64,000 nucleotides of DNA. It comes from an uncultured Bdellovibrionales bacterium. Lineage in GTDB: Bacteria > Bdellovibrionota_C > UBA2361 > SZUA-149 > CAYOZL01. The stretch covers positions 344 through 64,343 of the forward strand of contig CAYOZL010000002.1 in the NCBI GenBank assembly GCA_964408435.1, given 5' to 3'. How positions within the stretch are numbered: the stretch's first letter is position 1; the number at the start of each line of letters is the position of its first letter. Below are positions 18,466-42,307 of this stretch, one piece after another. The notes beneath the pieces are model-generated. The model made no database searches. It was not told the DNA's origin and was given only the letters and a program-made list of their open reading frames with translations. A program made the position numbers and the translations under genes.

Positions 18466-19621
18466 TCATTCTAGATTCAACAGATTTCCAATTATATTTT
18501 TTTTGAACAAAATCTCTTCCGTTCTCTCCTAACATATTTGATGAACTTTCACTTTCTAATAAAAACTCTAATGACTTCTTAAAAGATTCGAAGTCTTGAA
18601 AATACAAACCACCACTAGAATCTAAAACATGACGTTTCGTAACATCACAACTCTCTCTAACTATTACAGGTCTTGCTTGTAGCCATGTTTCCATTAGAAC
18701 AATTGAAAAAGATTCATTTATTGATGGTTGAACAAGAGCCAAGCAATTTGCCATGCAATCATGTTTTTCTTGTTCAGAGACGAATCCTAAATCTTTAACG
18801 CCAATTGGTAAACTTTCTAAAAAATTAATCTCACCAGAGCCTATTAAATGTAGTTTTAATTTATTTTTTCTAAATTCCTCAGGTAGCTTAGAGTAGTAAT
18901 CAATTAGTAAGTCTAGACCCTTGCCTGTTTCTTTCCTCCCTGAGTAGAGGATGTAAGGAACACTATTACTAGTAGTATTTGATTCTGCTTTAACAAAACC
19001 CATTCCTACTTCGTATCCTTTGTTAGAAATACTATATATTTTTTTTGCCAATTCTTTTTCTGGTAAAGAATTATAAAATACACTTTTAACTTTTAAAAAT
19101 AGTTCTCTAAAACAATCGAGATAAGCATATCTCTCATCATGTAGACAAGGTATTAGCACTGTATTCTCAGGTGAAATCATTGCAGACCAAAAAGAAATAG
19201 GAAATAAATAAGGTCCAATTAAAATCAAATCGTAATTTTTTTTATTCTGATTTAGAAAACTATATAAACTCTTAGAATTAACACCAGATTTCAACCATTG
19301 AAACTGTTCATCTAATGAAAGGGCCACACCTTTACTAATTTCATTTTCATAAAATGCAAATTTCTCAATATTTAATTCTTCTACTGGAAATCTTCTAATT
19401 GTTAATCTTCCTTTTTTTTCCATTCCAGCTTCAAGTTCATTTTTCCATGTTCTATGATCTTTAACGCAGGTGGTAATAACATCAATGTTTTTGAATAAAT
19501 CTTCTCTTGGTAAAAATATATTATCTACGTAGGATTTAATTAGAGTTTCAGCACCTCCACCAATCGACTCAAGGTATCTAGGTACAACAATTGCAATAGA
19601 AATTTTATTCATTGAGCTCAA
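18431..19621 (-). CDS. glycosyltransferase family 4 (GT-B, RfaG-like)
   Basis: The EX7E-like C-terminal motif (LETWLQARPVIV) and a typical GT4 N-terminus (ISIAIVVPRY..GGAE). Confidence 0.7.
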   Translation of the reverse strand: MSSMNKISIAIVVPRYLESIGGGAETLIKSYVDNIFLPREDLFKNIDVITTCVKDHRTWKNELEAGMEKKGRLTIRRFPVEELNIEKFAFYENEISKGVALSLDEQFQWLKSGVNSKSLYSFLNQNKKNYDLILIGPYLFPISFWSAMISPENTVLIPCLHDERYAYLDCFRELFLKVKSVFYNSLPEKELAKKIYSISNKGYEVGMGFVKAESNTTSNSVPYILYSGRKETGKGLDLLIDYYSKLPEEFRKNKLKLHLIGSGEINFLESLPIGVKDLGFVSEQEKHDCMANCLALVQPSINESFSIVLMETWLQARPVIVRESCDVTKRHVLDSSGGLYFQDFESFKKSLEFLLESESSSNMLGENGRDFVQKKYNWKSVESRMIDSLKKENILA

Positions 19622-20550
19622 TGTATAAAATGAAATAGATCATTAGACAAATTCTTATCAATAGAGGAATTGATTACTTTTTTTGAATTTTCTTTTAGTT
19701 CTAATAGTTTTTTCTGATGGGCATTTAGCAAACCCTCGATCTTTGATTCAAGTATTAATTCTAAATGCTTAGCAATGTCTTTTTCTAAGTGATTTTTTGA
19801 TTCTTTTAGTATCTCATCTTTTAAAACTTTAACTTTATCTGATTCTTTATCTAGAGCTTCAATTGTTTTCTCAATTATTTGACTACTATTTAATCCTCTT
19901 TTAACATTAATTTGATTTAAGAAATCTTTTTCTTGAAATATTACTGGTCTTAAATTTTCCAATGCTCTAATTGTTTTTAAATCAATTTTTTCTAAGCAAA
20001 CACTAATTTCATTACCTGTTTCGTTTAATTCAGGATACTCAGAGTTTAGACTTATTGGATAGTTGATACTTAAGTCATAGCTAGTAAAATTATTAATTCC
20101 AATAACATTCCCCTTAGTAAGATTTGTATAGTAGATTGGGAATATCTTTTTGTAGATATCTAAAGACCAACCTAGCATATGGTAGTTACCAACATTTATG
20201 TCTAAATTTTTAAAATATTTTTCTAGTAATTCTTTATATACAATTCCATTAGTGTGGTGAGACAGTGAGTTAAATAATAAATTATTAAGAGTATTTGAGA
20301 AAAGTATTTTAATACCAGGATAATAACTAGAGAGCTCAAATGAAAAATTAGAATCCAACTCGTCTTCTATTAAAAAAATACAAAAATCAAACATTTTTGC
20401 ATTAAAATATTGATATGTCTTTTGGTTAAATATTGAAATATTTAGATTTAAATGTTTAGCAAGCTTGTTTGTAAAGTTATTTGATAAAGATTCAGTATTT
20501 GAGTTTGAAAACCAAGCTACCTTTAAAGTAGAGTTTTTTAAGCTTTCCAA
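19618..20550 (-). CDS. hypothetical protein (operonic with the GT4)
   Basis: 4-nt overlap with the downstream GT4 gene. No recognised domain. The C-terminus is coiled-coil-like. Confidence 0.4.
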   Translation of the reverse strand: MESLKNSTLKVAWFSNSNTESLSNNFTNKLAKHLNLNISIFNQKTYQYFNAKMFDFCIFLIEDELDSNFSFELSSYYPGIKILFSNTLNNLLFNSLSHHTNGIVYKELLEKYFKNLDINVGNYHMLGWSLDIYKKIFPIYYTNLTKGNVIGINNFTSYDLSINYPISLNSEYPELNETGNEISVCLEKIDLKTIRALENLRPVIFQEKDFLNQINVKRGLNSSQIIEKTIEALDKESDKVKVLKDEILKESKNHLEKDIAKHLELILESKIEGLLNAHQKKLLELKENSKKVINSSIDKNLSNDLFHFIH

Positions 20551-20555
20551 AATTT

Positions 20556-21776
20556 TTAACCCAAATCTAAACTTAAGTCTTCATCAAACTCTAATTCTTC
20601 AGTATTAGAATTTGATTCCTTATTGCTGTAATCTGTTTGTTGTTGTTTGAAAGTTTTTTTAAATCGTGTACTTATTTTTTTATATCCAAAATATAGTAAT
20701 CCAAATAAAACTAATACCCAACCAAAACTAAAAGAGCTTTTTCTCTTATTCTCTGTGCCTGTGTCTAAACTTCTATTTACAAAAGACTCTTTTTCCTCAA
20801 CTTTAAGCATAGCTCTTTGCTGTCCTGTCTGTTCTTCGCTTTTAAACTCAGACTCAGCCATAACTTCTTTATCGTTTCTTTGTGTACCTAATTTGTTACT
20901 AGCTTTGTTATTAAGAGTTTTATAATACTTACTCTTAGGATTAATTTTACTTAAATAAAAATCATATTTTTCTTTATTTTCAATATTATCTAATAAGTAA
21001 GTTACTGTTGTGTATTCTAAATATTTATTGAGTCCGGTATCAGTAGATATTCTTTGATATGACTCAAGAAATTTTTCTTCTGCCAATACCCTAATTGATG
21101 CTGGTGCTTTTACTAACTGTAGAAAGAGCATTTTAACATCACCTCTAATCTCATCTGTTATTTCTGTTTGAGCCAAAAGTGAAAATGCACCTGAAAGATC
21201 ATTTTTATTATTTTCTCTAAAATCCAAAAAAAGTTTTGTGTTGTTAGCAGTTTTTTGCTCTCTATAGTAATGAACGAAAACTTCATCATCTAATATATTA
21301 GAATATTCATAATCTGCTGAAGTCATTGCAAGTGGAGTTATAATATTCTCAATAGATTTTATTTTTTTGCTTTCACTTAAGAGTTTTTTAGAAGTATTTA
21401 TGTAATTTCCAAGTTCTAAATCTACAGTTCTAAGTCTCTTAATGTAGTTTTGATCTATATTATTAATATTGTTTAATAAATATCTCTTAACAGTTTTTCT
21501 ATTTGAAATATTTATATAATCACTACTAGAGCTAGCATTTGTAATTTTTCTTAAAGAATTCAGATCACCTTCTCTTACGCTTTTTTCAATTAGCATCGGA
21601 TTAATAGAAGTATATGATTTAGTCTGTATATCTTGTGTATTTATTTGTGCTGCTTTTTTAATATCTGAATTTAAGACTAAACTAGCAGTTGAATCAGTAC
21701 CTACGTATATTATTAATGCGAATAGAGTAGCAGTAAATAGTGTTGTTATACTTATCCAGGTTAAAAAGCTTTTCAT
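20556..21776 (-). CDS. hypothetical bitopic membrane protein
   Basis: An N-terminal TM helix (ITTLFTATLFALIIYVG) and a C-terminal TM helix (FGWVLVLFGLLYFGY), with a charged tail. It is the first gene of the operon that ends with ligA. Confidence 0.4.
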   Translation of the reverse strand: MKSFLTWISITTLFTATLFALIIYVGTDSTASLVLNSDIKKAAQINTQDIQTKSYTSINPMLIEKSVREGDLNSLRKITNASSSSDYINISNRKTVKRYLLNNINNIDQNYIKRLRTVDLELGNYINTSKKLLSESKKIKSIENIITPLAMTSADYEYSNILDDEVFVHYYREQKTANNTKLFLDFRENNKNDLSGAFSLLAQTEITDEIRGDVKMLFLQLVKAPASIRVLAEEKFLESYQRISTDTGLNKYLEYTTVTYLLDNIENKEKYDFYLSKINPKSKYYKTLNNKASNKLGTQRNDKEVMAESEFKSEEQTGQQRAMLKVEEKESFVNRSLDTGTENKRKSSFSFGWVLVLFGLLYFGYKKISTRFKKTFKQQQTDYSNKESNSNTEELEFDEDLSLDLG

Positions 21777-21856
21777 CTTTTTGATCTAATTGATTTTTGA
21801 TTAAATATATCGAAAAACTAGTTTTTAGTCAATTAAAGTAAGTAATTCCGAGCAGG

Positions 21857-23095
21857 TTAGTTAACAAGTAGGTTTCTATGAACGACACCACTTTGGTCTG
21901 TAGTAAGGATGTTTTGTGGCACTCCAGGAATTGGGAATGGAAACATTAAGTTAGATATCAAACCGGATGAAGAACAACTAGCTAAACTATCACATTGAAT
22001 GGTATCACCTAAGGGGTCAAATACATCGAATTCACTTTCTACAGGGTGAAATAAGCCTAAATAGTGGCCAGATTCGTGCGCAATTGTCTCAGCTAATATG
22101 CTTAGTTCTAAATTAGATAAAAGCCCATCAGGCCCTTGATGCTCAGAAAGACTGACTCCAACTGCAGAAAAATCTGTAAGAATTGCTGGACCAGGAATAG
22201 AGCTTGCGACACCAAACACTGATTCTAAAGTATTAGCACCAGTTGTATTTGAATCTGAAGAAATAAAATCTGCGACATATACATTTAGTGCTATAGGATC
22301 TGAAGTAGATACAAAGCCCTGATTAGCAAAAAAATTAGAACCAGATATCGGATTAGGTAATACTCCAGTTGTGCTAGGTACATTAAAAACTGAAAGATCT
22401 ATTAAAAGACTGATTTGACTAAAGATAGCCCTTGTTTGGTCCATAGCTTGTTGTATTTCTAAAGAACTATTTTGTGCAGCATCGCCAACTAGAAATAAAT
22501 TAACTGCCACAGTTCCTGAACTAAAACTAGTGTCGTTTTTTGCAATTACTGTTGCAGTAACATTGCCACTTGTATTATCTCCAATAAAGGCTAGTTGATT
22601 ATAAGTACCTGAAAAAACTCCTGGGTCTTCATCGTTAGTTTGATAGTTAAGAGTGTTAACTTCAGGACCAAAAATTAAAGCAAAAGTAGTTAGTTCTTCA
22701 TCAGCATTTGGAACAATTTCATTATTATTAGGATCAAATAAGGCAACAGTAGCAATTCCATTACCAGGGTCTTGAAGTATAACTTGAAAAGCATTAAGCG
22801 TTGATAGATTTAAATTTAAGGATAAAAAATTAGTATTAGAAAAAGGTATGTTTACCTGTTCTATACCAAAGCCATTCGAGGCATCAACGTTAATACTACT
22901 AGTAATAACATCAAAGCCATCTATTGAATCGACGACTGTATCAGTCGTGTTATCTCCAGCTATAATTCCATCGCTATTATCATCAGTAGTGTTAGTTCCT
23001 GAGACACCACTAGATACTCCAGTAGAGCCGTTACCACCACTGGTGCAGGATATAATACTTAGAGATACTAAAAATATGAGGGCTAAATTTTTCAT
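21857..23095 (-). CDS. secreted lipoprotein zinc metalloprotease, metzincin-like
   Basis: Lipobox LSIISC and a Gly/Ser/Thr-rich linker. The motif AHESGHYLGLFHP matches HExxHxxGxxH. Confidence 0.75.
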   Translation of the reverse strand: MKNLALIFLVSLSIISCTSGGNGSTGVSSGVSGTNTTDDNSDGIIAGDNTTDTVVDSIDGFDVITSSINVDASNGFGIEQVNIPFSNTNFLSLNLNLSTLNAFQVILQDPGNGIATVALFDPNNNEIVPNADEELTTFALIFGPEVNTLNYQTNDEDPGVFSGTYNQLAFIGDNTSGNVTATVIAKNDTSFSSGTVAVNLFLVGDAAQNSSLEIQQAMDQTRAIFSQISLLIDLSVFNVPSTTGVLPNPISGSNFFANQGFVSTSDPIALNVYVADFISSDSNTTGANTLESVFGVASSIPGPAILTDFSAVGVSLSEHQGPDGLLSNLELSILAETIAHESGHYLGLFHPVESEFDVFDPLGDTIQCDSLASCSSSGLISNLMFPFPIPGVPQNILTTDQSGVVHRNLLVN

Positions 23096-23145: not shown

Positions 23146-23880
23146 TTATAATACTGCTTCTTTCAAAGCTTTATTAGGGCTAAATTTAACTCTTTTTCTA
23201 GCAGAAATTCTAATAACTTCTCTAGTTAAAGGATTAATTCCCATTCTAGCCTTACTCTTTCTTACGTACATCTTACCTAAGTTTGGTAAAGGTACTCGAT
23301 ATCCGCTCTTTAAAGACTCATGAATAATTCCAACAAAAGATGCATAGAATTCTTTAGCATTCTTCTTTGATGTGAAACCAACATAAGAAACTAAATTGTC
23401 ATACAGCTCAGATTGCGAATACTTATTAGTAGCTGAGTTCTTAGGCTTACTAAGCACTTTTTTACTCGGCGCTAAATAAGTAGGCTTTTTAACAACTACT
23501 TTAGCTACTTTTTTAACTGCTTTTTTCTTAGCCTTCTTCTTAGCAGGCTTTTTCTTTGCTACTTTTTTCTTAGTAACTTTCTTTTTAGCCTTCTTTTTAG
23601 TTACCTTCTTCTTAGTTGTTTTCTTTTTTGTAGCTTTCTTTTTAACTACCTTTTTCTTAGTAGCTTTTTTCTTAGCTACTTTCTTCTTAGTAACTTTCTT
23701 TTTAGCAGTCTTTTTCTTAGCTGCAGCTTTTTTCTTTACTGGCTTTTTTTTCGTAGTTTTCTTCTTTGTAGCTTTTTTCTTTGTTACTTTCTTTTTAACT
23801 ACTTTTTTCTTAGTAGCTTTTTTCTTAGCTGGTTTCTTTTTTGTTGTTTTCTTTTTAGTTGCCAATTTAATTTCCTCCAA
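23146..23880 (-). CDS. histone H1-like lysine-repeat protein fused to an HU/IHF-type DNA-binding domain
   Basis: The N-terminal ~150 aa consist of KKK(A/T/V)TKKKV repeats. The C-terminal ~90 aa (RVPLPNLGKMYVRKSKARMGINPLTREVIRISARKRVKFSP) form an HU fold with a beta-arm. Confidence 0.8.
   Translation of the reverse strand: MEEIKLATKKKTTKKKPAKKKATKKKVVKKKVTKKKATKKKTTKKKPVKKKAAAKKKTAKKKVTKKKVAKKKATKKKVVKKKATKKKTTKKKVTKKKAKKKVTKKKVAKKKPAKKKAKKKAVKKVAKVVVKKPTYLAPSKKVLSKPKNSATNKYSQSELYDNLVSYVGFTSKKNAKEFYASFVGIIHESLKSGYRVPLPNLGKMYVRKSKARMGINPLTREVIRISARKRVKFSPNKALKEAVL
23500..23870. repeat. tandem ~30-nt coding repeats (lysine-rich decapeptide repeats) within the HU-like gene
   Basis: Visible periodic units such as cttagtagctttttt, cttagctactttctt and cttagtaactttctt. 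The unit number could vary. Confidence 0.7.
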
Positions 23881-26895: not shown

Positions 26896-27042
26896 TTACT
26901 TTTTACTATTTAATTTTATAAAAGCCATTATTCCTAGAACGCCTAGAACAATTACAGTTCTTGTGCCTTGATCGGCTTTCATCACCGCTACTAGGATAAT
27001 ACCTAAGCCTACTAATAGTCCCCAATGAAAGAATGAAAGCAT
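26896..27042 (-). CDS. possible small two-helix membrane protein (48 aa), missing from the ORF track
   Basis: Manual translation gives MLSFFHWGLLVGLGIILVAVMKADQGTRTVIVLGVLGIMAFIKLNSKK. It has two hydrophobic helices and no clear SD. Confidence 0.25.
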   Translation of the reverse strand: MLSFFHWGLLVGLGIILVAVMKADQGTRTVIVLGVLGIMAFIKLNSKK

Positions 27043-27125: not shown

Positions 27126-27905
27126 CTAAATTGCCTGCCCCATTTTTAAACGGCTAGTCTTCTCTAGCAGTTTTAAATCTAGAATATTTTTTTCAGTACA
27201 TATTACTACCGTAGAGCCGAAATTAAATCGTGCAATTTCTTCAGCTTTATTTACACCAATGTCAACTTTAGTTGGCTTTATAGGATAGGGATTACGAAAC
27301 AAGTTATTACCAAGTTTTAGTTTTAAGTAATTTAGATAAATTGAGCCTACATTTAGTGCGCCTACTTTGATCAATGCTAACTTTCCAAGATCTGGATTAT
27401 CAATAAGGGTTACAATTCTTTCATTAGTTGAGAGTATGTAATTATTAGATTTTTTAGGATTCACAGTCTTTAATCTGCCTGGCTTACCTATCCATGAAAT
27501 TATTTTACCATCTATTGGGCTATGAATTCTATGATAATCTTTAGGTGATAGATAGATAGTTAAAAAATAGCCATCCTTAAAAATCCTTGATAAATCCTTG
27601 CTACATAAAAAAGCATCTAAATAATAACTAAAATTCTTAACTTTAATTTCATTATTAATTTTTCCGAAATCAACTATGGTGCCATCAACTGGACTAACAA
27701 CTCTTGAATTATCTATTTTCCTGTTTTTGACTTCTCTTGTAAAAAAATCCTGAAAATTAGTAAACTCATCTATTGCTTTAGTAAAATCGCTAACATCTAC
27801 ATTATAAAATGAAATATAGAGATTAAATATTTTAGACCTTAAAGGTTTTGGAATTCTTATAGCAGTAATAAGACCAGTAAGATAACTAATTATTTTTAAA
27901 AACAT
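27126..27905 (-). CDS. psd: phosphatidylserine decarboxylase proenzyme
   Basis: A C-terminal FGSTV self-cleavage motif (FNFGSTVVI) and an N-terminal membrane anchor. Confidence 0.85.
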   Translation of the reverse strand: MFLKIISYLTGLITAIRIPKPLRSKIFNLYISFYNVDVSDFTKAIDEFTNFQDFFTREVKNRKIDNSRVVSPVDGTIVDFGKINNEIKVKNFSYYLDAFLCSKDLSRIFKDGYFLTIYLSPKDYHRIHSPIDGKIISWIGKPGRLKTVNPKKSNNYILSTNERIVTLIDNPDLGKLALIKVGALNVGSIYLNYLKLKLGNNLFRNPYPIKPTKVDIGVNKAEEIARFNFGSTVVICTEKNILDLKLLEKTSRLKMGQAI

Positions 27906-27920
27906 GAGACTCTAAGTTTT

Positions 27921-29543
27921 TTACCCATTATCCTGTGTGTTTCTCACTCGATCGACATGCCTTTGAAAAATAGATCTAGCTGGTGGGGCAATTTTATTCT
28001 CAACTAAGAATGCAATCTCAAATTCATTAAATATAACTTCTTGGGTTGAGATTTCACATAGATAAATAGATTCTTGTTCAAGTAACTCATTAGCAGTTTG
28101 CGGTACTTCACTAAAAGATAAATTAGCTAACTCTGATGATGACTCTGCATCGGATACCTCTGAGCCGTTTAAGATATCTATCGCTCTAATATTTTCCTGT
28201 TCATCATCCCAACGAAAGCCCATAAGTTTTGCAGGAGCTCTACCAAGTGGCATAAAAACTTGAGCAGCAGACATATTGTAAGGTAAACCACAAAATCCAG
28301 GTGTTAAAAAACTTCCCCAAGATTTTCTAATTTTTAAATTTTCAATAATTTCACTTCTCATTTTTTTATATTCATTTTCAGAGTATTGTTTATTTAGAAT
28401 ACAATAGCTTTTATTACTTAGCCCTACACAGGCAAATAAATCGTGAGAATCATAACAATGAGAGCAATATTCAAGATTCTCAACATTGCTCCAACAATCA
28501 ATACTATTAAATATATTAGTGGCATTATCACCAATCATTGCAAATTGGGCTAAATTGCTACTATTATTACCGTAGCCAATACCCTCAAAACAGTTATTTG
28601 AGTCAAAAATATTTTGCGAATTAACTATATTTTTAGAGTTATAACAGTTTTTGCTATTTTGAACCTTTGTACATTCGTGTAAAAAATTATTGTTCCTTTC
28701 TACTTTTTTATTTTCGTTATTTTTTAATTCATTCTTAAATTTTTTATATTTAATCTTTGCTTGCTCTAGAAAATCTCTTTTATTGAGTTGTAAATCTTCT
28801 AAAAATTGGAAGTATTCTTTTTTAGAAGTCTTTTTATTGTAGATACAATACTCTGAATTTTTCATATCTGTACAAAAGATACAATTTTTACAATTTATAC
28901 AATTCGATAAAAAATAACTGTTTTCACATCTCTTAGAAAAAGTAGAGAAAAATAAGTTTTTAGAATCAATGCAAGAAGAGCACTCGTAACAGTTCTCAGA
29001 GTTAATTAAATTTAAGTTATCGATGCAGTTTCTTGAATTAATTATAAAATATGAATTATGGCAGTTTATTAAATCTTTTCCTATCGTGATATTTGTACAA
29101 TTTAAAATATCACTAACATAATGAACATTTGTAGAATTTTCGAAATTCTTTGCTATAACATTCGGACGAGGTACTTTATTCCAAAGCTCAATAAATTGTT
29201 CATTAAATGCTCTATCTAAGTTGTATTTCCTACTGTATTTAGTAGCATCGAATTCTTTCTCTAACCATTTTTCTTGCTTGTAAATAGTAAATTGCGATTT
29301 TTGGTGATAAACAGAAGAGATATATCCCCCTGTTTTGTCACACTTAATTTGATAGAACCTACCAGAACTAATAAACGCTAATTTTCTTCTTAACCTTTCT
29401 CTATAAACTGTATTTGGTAAAGGTAATGAAAATTTTCGATAGTTATCTATTTCTTCAGAAGATAATTCAAAGCTTTCTCCTGTTAGCTTACATTTTCTAG
29501 CTATTGATTTCTTTTCAAATAAATTTTTAATTTTTTCTATCAT
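27921..29543 (-). CDS. hypothetical cytoplasmic cysteine/asparagine-ladder repeat protein (12-residue NCxNxxxxxxSx repeats)
   Basis: The central ~200 aa show a strict 12-aa periodicity (NCTNITIGKDLI / NCHNSYFIINSR / NCIDNLNLINSE / NCYECSSCIDSK ...). There is no signal peptide. The stop of murU overlaps its start by 4 nt. Confidence 0.6.
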   Translation of the reverse strand: MIEKIKNLFEKKSIARKCKLTGESFELSSEEIDNYRKFSLPLPNTVYRERLRRKLAFISSGRFYQIKCDKTGGYISSVYHQKSQFTIYKQEKWLEKEFDATKYSRKYNLDRAFNEQFIELWNKVPRPNVIAKNFENSTNVHYVSDILNCTNITIGKDLINCHNSYFIINSRNCIDNLNLINSENCYECSSCIDSKNLFFSTFSKRCENSYFLSNCINCKNCIFCTDMKNSEYCIYNKKTSKKEYFQFLEDLQLNKRDFLEQAKIKYKKFKNELKNNENKKVERNNNFLHECTKVQNSKNCYNSKNIVNSQNIFDSNNCFEGIGYGNNSSNLAQFAMIGDNATNIFNSIDCWSNVENLEYCSHCYDSHDLFACVGLSNKSYCILNKQYSENEYKKMRSEIIENLKIRKSWGSFLTPGFCGLPYNMSAAQVFMPLGRAPAKLMGFRWDDEQENIRAIDILNGSEVSDAESSSELANLSFSEVPQTANELLEQESIYLCEISTQEVIFNEFEIAFLVENKIAPPARSIFQRHVDRVRNTQDNG

Positions 29544-30271
29544 AATATTTTATTTAAATAGTTTTTTGCTTGTTCAAGTCTCTTAGGTGTCCCTGCATCA
29601 CACCAATAAGAACTCATTAAGTAAGCTGAGAGTATTTCATTAGAGTTTAAACAATTAAGAAAGATGTCTTTTGTAAGACTAAATTTTTTATCTTTAAATA
29701 TAGTCACAAAATCTTTCTTGAATAGATCCTGACTTAAAAGACTAATACCAGTAAAAAAAACCGCTGTATAATCTTGCTTAGAGCCATAATCTAAAAATTT
29801 ATTTATCTCATTTTTTTTATTTACTCCTAATTGACCATTTATTTCTAAACTAGGATCTGATTTAACAACTAATGAGGCAAGTTTATTTTGATTTAAGTGA
29901 AAATCTGTAAAGTCAGAAAAGCTAAACTTATTATCAATTACAATATCAGAATTAATGATTAAAAGATTTTCAGAAGTGATTTTATTAGCTATTTTAGCTA
30001 ATGCTCCGCCTGTATCCAGTATGTCATCTTCATGCGAATACTCAATTTCTAAACCCCATTTTTCACCACCAGATACAAACTCAACAATTTTATCTGCTTT
30101 ATAATGAGTATTGATAAAAACTTTTTTATATCCTGCTCTAGATAAATGCTCTAGATTCATTTCAATTAAAGATTTATCATTCACCTTAACTAGAGGTTTA
30201 GGAATCTCTTTAGTCAGCTCACCTAATCTGGTTCCAAAACCTGCACTTAATAATAAAACTTCTTCCTTCAT
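29540..30271 (-). CDS. murU: sugar-1-phosphate nucleotidylyltransferase, MurU-like (N-acetylmuramate alpha-1-phosphate uridylyltransferase)
   Basis: The N-terminal LLSAGFGTRLGELTKEIPKPLV motif, short length (243 aa), and location immediately downstream of an AmgK-like kinase. Confidence 0.7.
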   Translation of the reverse strand: MKEEVLLLSAGFGTRLGELTKEIPKPLVKVNDKSLIEMNLEHLSRAGYKKVFINTHYKADKIVEFVSGGEKWGLEIEYSHEDDILDTGGALAKIANKITSENLLIINSDIVIDNKFSFSDFTDFHLNQNKLASLVVKSDPSLEINGQLGVNKKNEINKFLDYGSKQDYTAVFFTGISLLSQDLFKKDFVTIFKDKKFSLTKDIFLNCLNSNEILSAYLMSSYWCDAGTPKRLEQAKNYLNKIL

Positions 30272-30287
30272 AGTAACCGACTTAATA

Positions 30288-31352
30288 TCATAAATCTTCT
30301 AGAAAAATTTTTTTATTTGTTACGTTATCTAAATAACTTGGAAAATGTTTTTCGAATTCAGTTAAAAGCTTGGCATACTGAAAAGAAGATTCATCAGAGC
30401 TCTTAGTTGATAAATATCTTAGCGTTACAAATATCCTCCTCACTGTTCCAGGTATCCATTTAGAGTAATGATTTATTTTTTTAATTTTATCTAATTTTGA
30501 GAACCTGCCAACAACTTTTAAGTCTCTTTGAAGTAAAACTTTAGAATAATCTGAAATAAAATTTCCAGGCTTATTAAGCTTATGATAAAAGTATTTAACT
30601 AGCTCAAAATAATTATCATCTCCTAACAGTTCATCTGTATCTCTATCGTTTATTAGTGCAACTAAGTCGTAGTATTTAGTTGCGAGCAAAGCATCTTGAT
30701 AGTCTATTACTCTAAGCTTATCATTCTGGTCTATAATGATATTCCATGAGTGAAAATCTCTATGACATAAAACTTTTTTAAAACTAGATAAATCTTTGCA
30801 AAGTAAATCAAATGATTCTTTAAATATAGCTACATCACTGAGCTCTTCTAATGTGTAATCTAAAATCTCATCTAATTCCTTTCTATAAATATCAAAGCCA
30901 AAACTTCTTTTAAAAGCAAAAAAGCTTGAATCAGCCTTAATGTTTTGTATTTTACTAATTTCATCAATAGCTAGTTTATACTTTGAAATATCTTTATTAA
31001 GAATGTAGTGATCAGCTAGTAAGGAATCTCCTAAGTCTTCAATAAAAAATATATTTTCATCTGTGAAGAAAATTTCTGGGACTTTGACATCATTTTTTGA
31101 AAAAAAATCTCCTAACCCTCTAACAGCATCGTTTATTTTTACGATAGAGCCACCTAGTTCTGAGGTTTTAAGGTCAGTGAAAAACATTGCTAGAACACTA
31201 CTAAAGCTATCTTTATATTTAGATTCAAGATGAATTCTAAAATACCTTCTAGATGAAGCATCCGGTGTTAAAGATTCTATATTAGAAATCTTAGTGTTTG
31301 AAAAAAACTTTTTAAAAGAATTCTCAACTGAGCTATGTAGTATATCTTCCAT
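30288..31352 (-). CDS. amgK: APH-fold sugar kinase, AmgK-like (anomeric MurNAc/GlcNAc kinase)
   Basis: The Brenner motif HRDFHSWNIIID and the catalytic loop IDYQD, which are aminoglycoside-phosphotransferase-like. It is paired with murU. Confidence 0.65.
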   Translation of the reverse strand: MEDILHSSVENSFKKFFSNTKISNIESLTPDASSRRYFRIHLESKYKDSFSSVLAMFFTDLKTSELGGSIVKINDAVRGLGDFFSKNDVKVPEIFFTDENIFFIEDLGDSLLADHYILNKDISKYKLAIDEISKIQNIKADSSFFAFKRSFGFDIYRKELDEILDYTLEELSDVAIFKESFDLLCKDLSSFKKVLCHRDFHSWNIIIDQNDKLRVIDYQDALLATKYYDLVALINDRDTDELLGDDNYFELVKYFYHKLNKPGNFISDYSKVLLQRDLKVVGRFSKLDKIKKINHYSKWIPGTVRRIFVTLRYLSTKSSDESSFQYAKLLTEFEKHFPSYLDNVTNKKIFLEDL

Positions 31353-38104: not shown

Positions 38105-39403
38105 TTATTTTCTTAATTTCTTTTTTATACAAGTTGGGCACCATCCACCATTACGAATGCTAATTGGAGATGCTTTCCATTTATGCTTGAATTCACATTG
38201 CCATTCTAGCTTTGTTTTGGTGCCTAAATATTCTTTTGATAAACAGATACCTTTTCTCATTTTTGCAATTTCCTGCATACCCTCAATTGAATATAGTTTT
38301 TCACCAAAGCATATAGGACACCACATTCCTAAAATTACGGCTCTAGGATATGCTTTAAATTTGTGTTGTTTTGAACATGTGAAACTAATTTTACATGTAC
38401 TTAGAACCGCTGTTTTGTGTATGCACTCACCTCTATGTGACTTAGCGATTTTTTTCATCTGTTCAAGCGAGTATTTTCTAAGTTCAATATGTGCACACTT
38501 AGCGCACCAAGCTCCTTCTAGAATATTACTACCTCTAATTTCCCATTGGTGACCTTTAGAGCACTCAAAAAGTAATTTATGGAAATTATTTACATATTTT
38601 TCAGATAAGCATTTTCCTCCTTCTAATTCAGCGATAGTTTTGAAGTTTTCTATCGATAAGGATCTAGTTGGATTGCAAGATGGACACCATGAACCTTTTT
38701 TTATGTTAGCTGGCGTAGAAAGCCATTTGTGCCCAAGTTCACATTCCCACTCTAAGTGTGTTACAGCATTAAGATAGTTATTAGAAAGACATCTACCACC
38801 TTTAGATTTAGCAATTTCTTGCATTTCTTCTATGGTTAAAGGTCTTGAATTGGAACATAAGTAACACCAGGAACCGCTCTTTACTGAACCTGGATTGGCG
38901 TACCATCGATGTCCATTTGAACATTCCCACTCTAGCTTAGTATTGGCATTTTTATATACGGTAGAAAGACATCTACCACCTTTAGATTCAGCAATTTCTT
39001 GCATTTCTTCTATGCCTAAAGGTCTTGCACTGGAACATAAGCGACACCAACTTCCTTTTTTTACTGAATGAGCAGTGGCAAACCATTGATGTCCTTTTGA
39101 ACATTCCCACTTTAGCTTAAGATTGACATTTTTATATACTTTAGAAAGACATTTGCCTCCTCTGGATTTAGCAATTTCTTGCATTTTTTCTAATGACAAA
39201 GGTCTTGCTCGAGAACAAAGAAGGCACCATCTTCCTCTCTCTACTTGTGGTGGAAGAGCATGCCATCGATGTCCTTTGCTGCACTCCCATTCTAATTTAG
39301 TTGAAGTATTTATATATTCTTTTGAGATGCATTTCCCACCTCTGGATTCCGCAATTTTTTGCATGTCCTCGATTTTGAGTTTGCGATATTTGCGTTTAGC
39401 CAT
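38105..39403 (-). CDS. multi-zinc-ribbon repeat protein (7 tandem 60-aa C-C-H-C-C modules), paralogue A
   Basis: Repeats follow the pattern IEEMQEIAxSxGGKCLSxxYxNxxTKLEWECSxGHxWxAxPxxVxxGxWCxxC. The likely true start is the ATG at 39401-39403 (MAKRKYRKL), preceded by GAGG. The ORF track used an upstream TTG. Confidence 0.7.
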   Translation of the reverse strand: MAKRKYRKLKIEDMQKIAESRGGKCISKEYINTSTKLEWECSKGHRWHALPPQVERGRWCLLCSRARPLSLEKMQEIAKSRGGKCLSKVYKNVNLKLKWECSKGHQWFATAHSVKKGSWCRLCSSARPLGIEEMQEIAESKGGRCLSTVYKNANTKLEWECSNGHRWYANPGSVKSGSWCYLCSNSRPLTIEEMQEIAKSKGGRCLSNNYLNAVTHLEWECELGHKWLSTPANIKKGSWCPSCNPTRSLSIENFKTIAELEGGKCLSEKYVNNFHKLLFECSKGHQWEIRGSNILEGAWCAKCAHIELRKYSLEQMKKIAKSHRGECIHKTAVLSTCKISFTCSKQHKFKAYPRAVILGMWCPICFGEKLYSIEGMQEIAKMRKGICLSKEYLGTKTKLEWQCEFKHKWKASPISIRNGGWCPTCIKKKLRK

Positions 39404-39650
39404 ATCAAACCTCAATTAAAACATTAAATCAGTCAAAGCATAAACATTAATCCTAATGTTTATGCTCGTGAAAATTAAATTCTACCCGATAAATTTCAGT
39501 ATTTGTAAGTAGTATGAAAAGAACTTCTAATAGCTTAATATATCACAGTGTTTTGGCAAAAACTAGACGTGAATAAGTTAAGATTGTTATTAATAAGATT
39601 TTTTAAAATTTAAGGAGGCTTGCCAAATATTTAATAACCTTTAAAGTTTT

Positions 39651-40706
39651 TTATAAATCTTGTTCTTTCCCTTGGTAGAGTTTTCGTAGGGAATCTAAGT
39701 TTAATTTGCTATCTGTTGGTAACTCATTAAACGCTCTAACAGCTTGTTCTCGAACAGTTTTATCAGGGCAATTAAAAACAGACATAAGCACGGGTGCTAA
39801 TATGGCAGTTGCTCTGCTGACACTTCTATCTAGTTCAAGACCAAGCTCTACCCCGCCATTTGAGAAGGCTTCGATTAGATCGGTAATTGTTTTGAAACTA
39901 AGAGTAGTGTCTTCAAAATCAACTTCTTCTAGCTCTTGATCTATTAAGTTTAGAATGCCATCAAATGCAAAACCGATTACTTCAATTGCAGAGAGCTCTT
40001 TAGTTGAGGTAAGGAAAAGTTTTTTTCCTCTTCCAGCTGGTGCTGACCAACGTTCTAGCCTAGTACTGTTACTCCGTGTTCTTTTTATTTTTCCAAGTGA
40101 TTTTCTAAGTGCTGCTCCAAGCTCGTGAGCAGTAAGATTCTTTTCAATGACCTCACTTGCATATCTTTCCATTTCCTTCTCAGTTGGAAATTGAGCAATC
40201 CTATAGGCCATCGTCAACGGAATTTTACTTTCATCAATAAGGTGAAGTATATTTTTGGGTAGTTTCAATAAACGAACAGTTTTCTTTATTAAATCGATAC
40301 TGTAGGTTGGTAAACTTTCGTGAAGTTGTCTTGCTCCCCAACCTTTTTCAGTCATTACAGCCTGAAAGGATTCTGCACGTTCTGAGGCTAGAAGATCTTT
40401 CTTAGCGCCGTCTTCAACAAGCTGATCCATGATAATATCCACTCTACTCATGGTTACATCACTGACAATGCTTGGAGCTTTTTCCCAGCCAAGATGCTTC
40501 ATCGCTCTTAGTCTTATTTCGCCAGAGATTAAAATGAATCTGTCTCCATTTGGTCTGACTTTAATTCTTCTTTTCAGGTCGTTTTTTTCAATACTTCTTG
40601 CTCTTTTTTCAATGTCTTTCTCTGTGATGGTTTTTCGAGGTTGATTTGGATCGAAATCAATCAAAGCTATATCAATATCCATCATTTGATCTGGTTTTTT
40701 GGCCAC
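39651..40706 (-). CDS. ParB/Srx-like nuclease-domain protein with HTH (orphan, no ParA)
   Basis: IDIALIDFDPNQPRK...IKVRPNGDRFILISGEIRLRAMKHLG matches the ParB N-terminal box including GxxRxxA. An HTH follows, and the C-terminal region is helical. Confidence 0.7.
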   Translation of the reverse strand: MAKKPDQMMDIDIALIDFDPNQPRKTITEKDIEKRARSIEKNDLKRRIKVRPNGDRFILISGEIRLRAMKHLGWEKAPSIVSDVTMSRVDIIMDQLVEDGAKKDLLASERAESFQAVMTEKGWGARQLHESLPTYSIDLIKKTVRLLKLPKNILHLIDESKIPLTMAYRIAQFPTEKEMERYASEVIEKNLTAHELGAALRKSLGKIKRTRSNSTRLERWSAPAGRGKKLFLTSTKELSAIEVIGFAFDGILNLIDQELEEVDFEDTTLSFKTITDLIEAFSNGGVELGLELDRSVSRATAILAPVLMSVFNCPDKTVREQAVRAFNELPTDSKLNLDSLRKLYQGKEQDL

Positions 40707-41067
40707 GGTAAATCCCTTATAAAAACGCTATTGAGATTGTTAGTTATTTGGCAATAAATCGCCCCAAATAATTATAATAATTATCTAAGACAACTTATTA
40801 GTTTTATGGCTGATATTTAAATTATAAAGAACGAATAGATTGAGTTATATTTTCATAGAGTAGATTTTACTATAAAATAGTGATAAATTGCAAATCAGCT
40901 GAAATAATACCTAGAATTACTTATAAGTCGTTAAAATATAAGATTTAGAAATTATAACAGTAAGTTCTTTTATAATTATATAATTGTAGAACCTTATTTA
41001 ATGCGTGAAAAGAGATTTGAATTACTTTTCACGCTTTGACTGGTTATTGTTTTTTTTGAGGTTTGTC

Positions 41068-42174
41068 ATGGCAAGACTTAGATATACGATTAAGGATATG
41101 CAAAAAATTGCTACATCAAGAGGTGGTAAATGCTTATCAGATAGCTACGCAGGTCTAAAAACCAAACTTGAGTGGCAATGCGCAGATGGGCATCGTTGGA
41201 ATTCTACACCTCATAGCATTATTTATACTAAGTCATGGTGTTTAGCTTGTGCAGGAGTTAAGCCACTAACATTAGACGAGATGCAAAAGATTGCTAAATC
41301 TAGAGGTGGTAAGTGCTTATCTAAGGAGTATTTTAACAATAGAACTAAACTCGAATGGCAATGCGCAAATGGACATCGCTGGTTTGCTGCTCCTAAAGAT
41401 GTAAAAAAGGGAACATGGTGTTTTTATTGTTCCAGCACTAAATTAACAATTGAAGAAATGCAAGAAATTGCTAAATCAAGAGGTGGTAAGTGTTTGTCTA
41501 GAGATTACTTAGGAATTTTTACTAAACTAGAATGGGAATGCGCAAAAAAGCATCGTTGGCAAGCCCAACCTAATGACATTAGAAAGGGAGGATGGTGTCC
41601 TTATTGTAGTGGAAGACTATCTAGGACAATCGAAGAGTTTCAACTAATTGCTGAACTCGAAGGTGGCAAGTGCTTATCTACGGAATATGTAAAAGATTTG
41701 ATTCCTCTACGCTTTAGATGCTCGGAAGGTCATGAATGGGAAGCAATAGGAAGTAATATAAAAAAGGGAACATGGTGTCCTGTATGCTCTAATCGAAAGT
41801 ACTCAATTAGGGAGATGCAAGAGATAGCGGAGTCTCAAAACGGTAAGTGCTTGTCTAAAGGCGTCATTACTAGAAAAACAAGAGTGGAATTTCAGTGTAA
41901 GGAAAAACATGTTTTTAGAGCACTTCCTAGAGCTATTGAGTTCGGTATGTGGTGTCCTAAATGTTTTGGAGACAAGCTGTATACCATTGAAGGAATGAAA
42001 GAAATTGCAAAAATGAGAGGTGGAGACTGTTTATCTAAGGAATATTTAGGTGTTACGAAAAAGCTTAAATGGACTTGTGAATTTTCCCATACTTGGACTG
42101 CACTCCCTAATCCTATTAGAGATGGAGGATGGTGTCCTGTTTGTTTTGAGATTGCAAGAAAGAAACAGATTTAA
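41068..42174 (+). CDS. multi-zinc-ribbon repeat protein (6 tandem 60-aa modules), paralogue B
   Basis: It has the same repeat architecture as paralogue A and a homologous C-terminus (GGWCPxC). The preferred start is ATG 41068 (MARLRYTIKDMQKIA), preceded by GAGG. The GTG at 41005 used by the ORF track is less likely. Confidence 0.7.
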   Translation: MARLRYTIKDMQKIATSRGGKCLSDSYAGLKTKLEWQCADGHRWNSTPHSIIYTKSWCLACAGVKPLTLDEMQKIAKSRGGKCLSKEYFNNRTKLEWQCANGHRWFAAPKDVKKGTWCFYCSSTKLTIEEMQEIAKSRGGKCLSRDYLGIFTKLEWECAKKHRWQAQPNDIRKGGWCPYCSGRLSRTIEEFQLIAELEGGKCLSTEYVKDLIPLRFRCSEGHEWEAIGSNIKKGTWCPVCSNRKYSIREMQEIAESQNGKCLSKGVITRKTRVEFQCKEKHVFRALPRAIEFGMWCPKCFGDKLYTIEGMKEIAKMRGGDCLSKEYLGVTKKLKWTCEFSHTWTALPNPIRDGGWCPVCFEIARKKQI

Positions 42175-42233: not shown

Positions 42234-42307
42234 TGGTGATACTTAGACTTGAACTAAGGACCTCGGAATTATGAGTTCCGCGCTCTAACCAGCTGAGCTA
42301 TATCACC
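42234..42307 (-). tRNA. tRNA with CAU anticodon (elongator Met, or Ile2-lysidine type)
   Basis: The minus-strand sequence GGTGATATAGCTCAGCTGGTTAGAGCGCGGAACTCATAATTCCGAGGTCCTTAGTTCAAGTCTAAGTATCACCA folds into a cloverleaf. The acceptor stem is 7 bp, the anticodon stem-loop is CGGAA/CTCATAA/TTCCG, and the T-loop is TTCAAGT. The G1:C72 pair argues against an initiator. Confidence 0.85.

Follow-up and report, generated by a model that had tools for sequence, protein, structure and literature searches.

The window analysed here is a stretch of 64,000 nt (GC content about 30%) from an uncultured Bdellovibrionales bacterium, and our subject is a repeat protein of 540 residues, labelled REP in the following, which is encoded at 27921..29543 on the minus strand. 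REP is the third of four open reading frames (ORFs) that all lie on the minus strand and together span 31352 to 27126. The MetK encoded in the window has its named relatives, at 67-71% identity, in metagenome-assembled genomes of Bdellovibrionota, Oligoflexia and “Deltaproteobacteria”, which points to a Bdellovibrionota-like source. REP belongs, as a divergent single-copy representative, to an undescribed and very large family whose cytoplasmic members have about 550 residues and are typical of ultra-small bacteria, and its place beside cell-wall recycling genes is a lineage-specific gene order and not evidence of pathway membership. The four genes are as follows:

30288..31352 (-): AmgK-like sugar kinase with the APH fold, 354 aa, first of the four-gene run (PF01636, E=1.5e-12)
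29540..30271 (-): MurU-like sugar-1-phosphate nucleotidyltransferase, 243 aa (PF00483, E=4.6e-28)
27921..29543 (-): REP, 540 aa, treble-clef modules flanking two predicted beta-solenoids (no Pfam or NCBIfam match; family homologues and AlphaFold2 (AF2) model)
27126..27905 (-): phosphatidylserine decarboxylase Psd (PF02666, E=1.7e-49, 168.6 bits against a threshold of 22)

A preliminary description of this DNA had reported these genes as co-directional, with Psd following REP, and all four ORFs were indeed recovered on the minus strand. The reported 4-nt overlap was seen as well, in the form of an ATGA that joins the murU-like stop with the REP start; the gap from the REP stop to the psd start is 15 nt. 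Judged from the sequence, both the murU-like/REP and the REP/psd junctions are probably translationally coupled. Upstream of the run, rsmI lies on the opposite strand, and beyond psd a convergent glycosyltransferase gene follows. Promoter and terminator scans of this AT-rich DNA were uninformative, with counts at or below the shuffle expectation. Just 3' of psd, at 26896-27042 (-), there is a 48-aa ORF for a hydrophobic, probably two-helix membrane peptide (MLSFFHWGLLVGLGIILVAVMKADQGTRTVIVLGVLGIMAFIKLNSKK), which is also called as a gene on the JGI contig, a marine metagenome scaffold.

The two upstream genes had been described as an AmgK-MurU pair. In the salvage pair of Pseudomonas putida, an APH-fold kinase and an NTP-transferase adjoin as they do here. 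The earlier label held in so far as both proteins are most similar to AmgK and MurU, but their scores fall far under the NCBIfam equivalog cut-offs. For the kinase, the top NCBIfam models are both AmgK models (NF045759 with 45.1 bits, cut-off 550; NF045698 with 49.1 bits, cut-off 500), and its best match among PDB sequences is a generic “aminoglycoside phosphotransferase”, 3CSV. The transferase reaches 139.2 bits with the MurU model NF045761, which has an equivalog cut-off of 250. Its top PDB match is P. putida MurU (4Y7T, 67.7 bits, E=1.3e-17), with HddC (6JQ8) close behind at 65.2 bits, and HddC/GMPP-type enzymes are altogether only marginally below 4Y7T. A fair label for the pair would be an AmgK/MurU-like anomeric sugar kinase and sugar-1-phosphate nucleotidyltransferase, which does not fix the substrate.

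Architecture and predicted fold of REP

REP contains 24 Cys and 64 Asn residues. As claimed before, it is predicted to lack a signal peptide and to be cytoplasmic; no hydrophobic segment was found in it, the maximal Kyte-Doolittle value over 19 residues being 0.84. Its domains, in the order of the chain, are:

29304..29504 (-), aa 14-80: N-terminal module that goes back to a treble-clef zinc ribbon (zf_Tbcl-like), keeping two of eight ligand positions, C18 and C68 (family alignment, PF13451 matches on members from the candidate phyla radiation (CPR), covariation, per-residue model confidence (pLDDT) 91-95)
29169..29303 (-), aa 81-125: conserved linker with invariant F113 and Q116 (“FNEQF”, family consensus RPFFEQF; lowest mean entropy of any region, 1.71 bits)
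28836..29168 (-), aa 126-236: predicted beta-solenoid 1, about nine 12-residue coils with Asn in position 1, Cys/Ser in position 2 and inward positions 2, 5, 8 and 11 (lag-12 signal, family columns, AF2)
28689..28835 (-), aa 237-285: basic helical hairpin between the solenoids (helices 241-251 and 256-274; net charge +7)
28386..28688 (-), aa 286-386: predicted beta-solenoid 2, a duplicate of solenoid 1 (HHalign), irregular at aa 319-340, with invariant C372, I382 and N384, ending with invariant “YCILNKQY”
28194..28385 (-), aa 387-450: long helix and conserved C-terminal domain (motif GEWGEFFP...YNET.AQ.YFPL; N423 and W445 invariant; entropy 1.79-1.80 bits)
27924..28193 (-), aa 451-540: variable acidic linker, then a second treble-clef module in degenerate form (of its ligands only C496 kept; C-terminal zf_Tbcl_2 ribbon absent)

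The centre of the protein had been described as strict 12-aa repeats of the form NCxNxxxxxxSx in at least 14 units. In block 1 (aa 130-235) the period is real, with a lag-12 residue identity of z=6.8 above shuffles, over a general period-3 signal, and about nine units. With the register set at residue 136, eight of nine units have Asn in position 1 and eight of nine have Cys or Ser in position 2, so that this part of the consensus holds, but Asn at position 4 and Ser at position 11 occur in only three and four of nine units, respectively. The strictness does not extend to block 2 (aa 285-385), where the lag-12 signal is absent in the sequence (z=0.0), and the number of units was consequently overstated at the sequence level, although it is about right as a count of structural coils. 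The two blocks are homologous (HHalign probability 99.85%, E=6.5e-31) and each ends with “...C-I-x-N-K-x-Y-S-K-E-E-Y”, followed by a helix. Homology was likewise found between the N-terminal and the C-terminal module (HHalign probability 99%, E=5e-18). At the family level the repeat reduces to three residues, x-[N/D]-[C/S/small hydrophobic]. Within the 12-mer, positions 2, 5, 8 and 11 are most conserved (1.26-2.0 bits) and the exposed positions are variable (2.6-3.3 bits), the variable ones in the family being 6, 7, 9 and 10.

Structure models were obtained with AF2 for the window REP from an alignment of 54 sequences (pLDDT 84.2, predicted TM score (pTM) 0.87) and for a canonical family member from 79 sequences (pLDDT 91.6, pTM 0.89). 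In the canonical model solenoid 1 reaches a pLDDT of 95-97, with the pattern EEEE--E--E-- every 12 residues across nine coils. Block 2 was modelled as 12-residue coils across about its last four turns. According to these models, the centre of REP is built of narrow beta-solenoids with 12 residues per turn, an inward Cys/Ser ladder and Asn/Asp corners, which agrees with the earlier idea of a beta-solenoid with an inward ladder that had been proposed for structure prediction. Each coil has four sides of three residues, in which the inward positions 2, 5, 8 and 11 are Cys, Ser or small hydrophobic residues and the preceding corner is Asn or Asp.

This geometry of four times three residues per turn, with a Cys/Ser core and Asn/Asp corners, is predicted with high confidence and appears to be without a close solved counterpart. 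In Foldseek searches against the PDB, the window model gave nothing of relevance, and the canonical model found generic left-handed beta-helix enzymes only (best E=9.4e-4, with a TM of about 0.1, an rmsd of 10-22 Å and a probability of 0.1-0.5). Foldseek against BFVD returned only short, non-significant zinc-ribbon matches, and neither phmmer nor the family profile raised anything from the PDB sequences beyond LIM-like or ribbon noise at E>0.1. The left-handed beta-helix proteins LpxA, LpxD, GlmU and gamma-carbonic anhydrase are cytoplasmic bacterial beta-solenoids as well, and theirs is the only PDB class that Foldseek retrieved with the high-confidence model. However, these hexapeptide-repeat proteins have a period of 18 (three times six) and not of 12 (four times three), and REP has no Hexapep Pfam match or acyltransferase signature.

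The likeness to insect antifreeze proteins (AFPs) that had been pointed out is real with respect to the period: AFPs of the Tenebrio type (PF02420; TmAFP) are narrow beta-solenoids of 12 residues per turn with inward Cys at regular spacing. A relationship is not supported. A precomputed Pfam annotation lists a “faint” AFP match for REP, yet PF02420 scores 9.7 bits against a cut-off of 36.5 (E=1.7), and no AFP structure occurred among all 6 listed Foldseek matches of the window model or among the top 50 of the canonical model, so that membership of this family was rejected. AFPs are secreted and disulfide-bonded, whereas REP, being presumably cytoplasmic and devoid of a signal peptide, should not be disulfide-stapled. 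Further differences are that the TCT ice-binding face is not evident in the REP sequence and that the two solenoids of REP are embedded between zinc-ribbon modules.

The REP family and its cysteines

A word-indexed search found 862 REP homologues at E<=1e-3, with full-length matches down to E=1e-216 at a coverage of 80-100%. An exhaustive profile search put the family at 2,564 or more clusters (50% identity, E<=1e-30), almost all with a length of 545-600 aa and a single full-length match. REP shares the family motifs RPFFEQF, YCILNKQY.KEEY and GEWGEFFP...YNET, as well as the invariant residues F113, Q116, C221, C372, I382, N384, N423 and W445. The named sources are mainly Patescibacteria (Peregrinibacteria/Peribacteria, Gracilibacteria, Paceibacterota and others) among the bacteria and, within the DPANN archaea, Aenigmatarchaeota and Micrarchaeota. 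A few Bdellovibrionales, “delta” and Nitrospirota metagenome-assembled genomes are minor sources.

The architecture of the family consists of a treble-clef zinc ribbon, a linker, two units of a 12-residue/turn solenoid plus helix, a helical domain, a second treble-clef ribbon and a CxxC-x17-CxxC ribbon. Canonical members match PF13451 (zf_Tbcl) at their start and carry a second copy together with the CxxC-x17-CxxC ribbon (PF23477, zf_Tbcl_2/TIGR04272) at their end, and homologous modules are kept in REP. These models, however, cover terminal pieces of about 40 residues and leave the core of about 400 residues without a model, and REP differs from such ribbons in having one of four ligands at each of three sites and no fourth domain. 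Literature searches, Pfam and NCBIfam yielded no description of REP or its family (no Pfam or NCBIfam match of REP at E<=0.1). The Cys-rich proteins reported in a paper on Peribacteria form another set, as they are large and secreted.

In PADLOC, neither the window REP nor two CPR members had a match. Viral and phage collections, searched by tblastn, contained nothing for the window REP; the yield was a single ribbon match with 15% coverage to a CPR member, plus one marginal contig of IMG/VR. The family is practically missing from these collections. Separately, the PHROG family phrog_15341 matches the REP solenoid (aa 141-377, E=4e-9); this may reflect composition or repeats, and tblastn gave no record of a phage homologue. 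Among the top 150 representatives, the fusions seen were one with a GNAT domain and one with an unannotated C-terminal extension, both of which may be artefacts of gene calling. The former, P0215, is a metagenomic protein of 731 aa in which an N-terminal GNAT acetyltransferase domain is fused to a REP-family member; it alone looked informative, but it may be a gene-calling merger.

The cysteines of the solenoids had been thought more likely to bind metal than to form disulfides. The family's own zinc-ribbon ligand sets served as positive controls for the behaviour of metal ligands: the sets {18,21,46,49}, {68,71,89,92} and {496,499,524,527} co-vary with phi values of 0.7-1.0 in an all-or-none manner (site 1 has four Cys in 147 sequences and three in 2). 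Solenoid cysteines, in contrast, are near independent, with phi<=0.2 within coils and <=0.39 anywhere. For the coil 184-195, zero, one, two, three and four Cys are found in 9, 22, 58, 54 and 41 sequences, which is a binomial-like distribution, and the ladder cysteines are replaced singly by Ser, Val, Leu, Ile or Ala and not by His or Asp. This independence and these replacements argue for buried core positions and against obligate metal sites, and the earlier claim is therefore not sustained. Instead, the ladder cysteines appear to behave as the compact core filling of a helix too narrow for large side chains and not as metal ligands. Four cysteines are near-invariant, namely C218, C221, C372 and C381.

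The window REP has the fewest cysteines in the alignment, in which the range is 24-46 per chain. Its sites 1-3 read CTVE, CTKK and CSSQ and site 4 is absent, and the same is found in its close relatives P0002-P0010; site 4 is intact in 38 of 42 CPR members. The window REP and the whole Bdellovibrionota-like subfamily have lost every complete zinc site, while the solenoids and the inter-domain motifs were kept; in this subfamily the zinc ribbons are dispensable. This loss is a subfamily trait and does not exclude these proteins from the REP family.

Gene order in the lineage and in other genomes

Six loci of the lineage were examined, namely the window itself (L001), L002, L004, L087 and L089, plus L085. 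The order in the lineage is kinase, transferase, a penicillin-binding protein (PBP) transpeptidase, a protein termed X, REP, Psd and, in brackets, HemC, with overlapping or nearly abutting junctions and REP relatives at 48%, 35% and 34% identity. X is a signal-peptide protein of 181-249 aa without a Pfam match, encoded between the PBP and REP or psd. Its copies (L087:10253-11002, L004:5425-5970 and L085:10909-11502) share 39-53% identity, and L002 lacks it. In the locus L085 there is no REP, but the genes for the kinase, the transferase, PBP, X, Psd and HemC are all kept. No homologues of PBP, X or HemC were found anywhere in the 64-kb window. Because the window lacks PBP and X, its 4-nt overlap between murU and REP is a derived state that results from the loss of intervening genes. 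Kinase, transferase and REP share one co-directional block in five of six lineage loci, but in the relatives the PBP and usually X stand between murU and REP.

The tightest and most constant neighbour of REP is psd and not murU. It lies directly downstream of REP in every REP-bearing relative (L002, L004, L087 and L089), with gaps of -22 to +15 nt. The divergence of REP (48, 35 and 34% identity) is about that of the MurU-like protein (47.5, 38 and 36%) and of Psd (47, 34.5 and 36%), and since REP diverges at the rate of its neighbours, it has been maintained in the lineage. Conserved order inside one lineage is nevertheless weak evidence of shared function.

Outside the lineage, 78 loci from other genomes were analysed for neighbours within 6 kb of REP by tblastn at E<1e-4. 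Homologues similar to AmgK, MurU or Psd were near REP in none of them, so that no association with amgK/murU is seen at these loci. Tandem arrays are frequent there. Copy numbers were mapped for 81 loci, i.e. the 78 and the lineage loci L001, L002 and L004 with one copy each, in stretches of up to about 13 kb and counting full-length copies:

1 full-length REP copy: 28 loci
2 copies: 18 loci
3 copies: 15 loci
4 copies: 8 loci
5 copies: 4 loci
6 copies: 5 loci
7 copies: 1 locus

In Patescibacteria, as many as seven full-length copies, each about 555 aa long and all on one strand, are packed into 13 kb (loci L008, L012, L015, L031, L033, L035 and L083, e.g. L083:518-12600). Their paralogues are old: the median identity within a locus is 41%, only 15 of 159 have their closest relative within their own locus, and array copies are usually closer to a copy from another genome than to each other. 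The 64-kb window holds no second REP copy. Two further genes recur at these loci. A soluble P-loop ATPase of the VirD4/TrwB/HerA-like type, about 700-750 aa long and with a C-terminal PF23477 (zf_Tbcl_2) ribbon, occurs in 15 of the 78 loci. It usually flanks the arrays directly on the same strand (e.g. L013:2202-4295, also in L016, L028, L035, L060, L067, L072 and L079) and weakly matches mad8 and HerA in PADLOC. A TrmB-family helix-turn-helix protein of about 253 aa (PF01978) is found within or beside the arrays in 19 of the 78 loci, usually on the opposite strand (e.g. L067:5097-5858).

Possible roles of REP and other genes of the window

Taken as a whole, the explanation that we favour and regard as reasonably probable is that REP is a member of a large solenoid family that sits in an envelope block of its lineage and acts there as a non-enzymatic scaffold. 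Its parts differ in strength. That REP has the identity and architecture described above and is neither a salvage enzyme nor a metal ladder is, jointly, a statement in which we have considerable confidence, whereas a rigid non-enzymatic scaffold or adaptor is a tentative mechanism, suggested by the conservation pattern and by the lack of a catalytic signature. Indeed, Pfam, NCBIfam and PADLOC gave no enzymatic signature for REP, there was no PDB sequence match, and fold matches were generic only. The block of the lineage is a tightly packed set of genes for envelope biogenesis, comprising the APH kinase, the NTP-transferase, the PBP, the secreted X, REP, Psd and HemC. The window has lost PBP and X, by which REP was brought into the 4-nt overlap with the murU-like gene. 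In this scheme REP may serve as a rigid scaffold or adaptor and bind its partner, be it a protein or a nucleic acid, through its variable solenoid surface and/or the conserved linker, inter-domain and terminal modules. It would be co-expressed with psd and would not carry out a step of N-acetylmuramic acid (MurNAc) salvage.

Several points weigh against this explanation. The scaffold or adaptor role rests on missing catalytic signatures and on the conservation pattern. The motifs RPFFEQF, CILNKQY and GEWGEFFP...YNET could form an unrecognised active site, and the near-invariant C218, C221, C372 and C381 could still bind metal. The position in the envelope operon, kept at about 35% identity, also allows a real link to Psd or PBP.

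The preliminary description had seen REP as a part of MurNAc salvage, i.e. as a new accessory component of the AmgK-MurU pathway, for example a metal-dependent factor, that is co-translated with MurU. The ATGA overlap with the murU-like gene, the co-directional block of kinase, transferase and REP in five of six lineage loci (L085 being without REP) and the AmgK and MurU models as top NCBIfam matches of the upstream genes speak for it. A third component of this kind is not known from the pathway, and a literature search turned none up. We think that this role is very unlikely to be realized, given that 0 of 78 loci from other genomes have amgK-, murU- or psd-like genes nearby, that the PBP and usually also X part murU from REP in the relatives, that REP is missing from L085 although kinase, transferase, PBP, X and Psd are kept there, that the family has its main distribution in Patescibacteria and DPANN, where its surroundings are quite different, and that the ladder has no co-dependent Cys sets. 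A functional coupling of REP to phospholipid and cell-wall synthesis, with REP as an adaptor or regulator of Psd (and of PBP/X) and its basic N-terminal module (+10) approaching the anionic membrane, is unlikely as well, but least so among the alternatives. It would account for the psd gene directly 3' in every REP-bearing relative, for the block being kept down to about 34% REP identity with REP and its neighbours diverging equally, and for the charge distribution of REP. However, psd is near REP in 0 of 78 loci from other genomes, in L085 X is followed directly by Psd without REP, and gene order in a single lineage can persist without a functional link.

As to the cysteines, the solenoid could be a metal store, an Fe-S carrier or a redox sensor, similar to a cytoplasmic metallothionein or an Hsp33-like switch. 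The content of 24-46 Cys per chain, the CxxCxxCxxC strings, the near-invariant cysteines and very weak Fer4_2 and zf-CXXC matches (E=0.03-0.8) could be read in this way. We consider it improbable to a high degree: ladder cysteines are lost independently and swapped for aliphatic residues or Ser, their number per coil is binomial-like as opposed to the all-or-none ribbons, the window REP has the lowest Cys count of the family, and there are no significant matches to Fe-S or metallothionein families. Alternatively, REP proteins could be partners or substrates of the soluble HerA/VirD4-like ATPase with which they share the zf_Tbcl_2 ribbon, for instance in nucleic-acid handling or transfer in the CPR, and the window REP could be a relic without that link or the ribbons. 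This is improbable too, although the ribbon-bearing ATPase usually flanks the arrays on the same strand in the 15 of 78 loci that have it, a TrmB-family regulator occurs in 19 of 78, and the ATPase has weak mad8 and HerA matches in PADLOC. On the other hand, 63 of 78 loci lack such an ATPase within 6 kb and a background frequency for comparison is missing, REP itself has no PADLOC match, phage and viral collections are practically free of the family, and the window is without a second copy.

A more far-reaching idea, which we regard as speculative and improbable, is that REP proteins represent an unrecognised class of cytoplasmic solenoids with 12 residues per turn. They would constitute an ancient system of many paralogues in small-celled prokaryotes with an episymbiotic or predatory life (Patescibacteria, DPANN and some Bdellovibrionota) and work with HerA/VirD4-like ATPases. 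In a Bdellovibrionota-like lineage, one zinc-free copy would then have been recruited to the PBP-X-REP-Psd operon, where it would couple peptidoglycan and phospholipid synthesis.

Under the favoured explanation of REP as a family member with a probable scaffold role, the finding adds no step to peptidoglycan recycling, and the operon is ordinary once its lineage context is seen. What is new is a large and uniformly built family for whose core no curated model or paper was found. Genomes of about 1 Mb often carry it as a tandem of three to seven old paralogues. So many copies of 1.7 kb are rarely kept in tiny genomes without strong selection, and their function would therefore inform the biology of Patescibacteria and DPANN. 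In this context, the zinc-free single-copy REP in a Bdellovibrionota-like envelope operon provides a simpler experimental entry point.

Several other genes of the window were noted in passing. At 23146-23880 (-) an HU-type DNA-binding protein (PF00216) is encoded that carries an N-terminal extension of about 150 aa, and this extension resembles histone-H1/Hc2 nucleoproteins (PF07382, 27 bits, below the cut-off). Next to it, at 19618-23095 (-), three consecutive ORFs of 310, 406 and 412 aa have no Pfam match at E<=1e-5; they sit among glycosyltransferase genes, and the cluster looks like one of the surface-polysaccharide type. The genes at 38105-39415 (-) and 41005-42174 (+) each encode a protein with a DUF4379 treble-clef zinc finger and a CapR-homology domain. 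They form a divergent pair with a ParB-like gene (39651-40706) between them, and a tRNA gene is located at 42234-42307.

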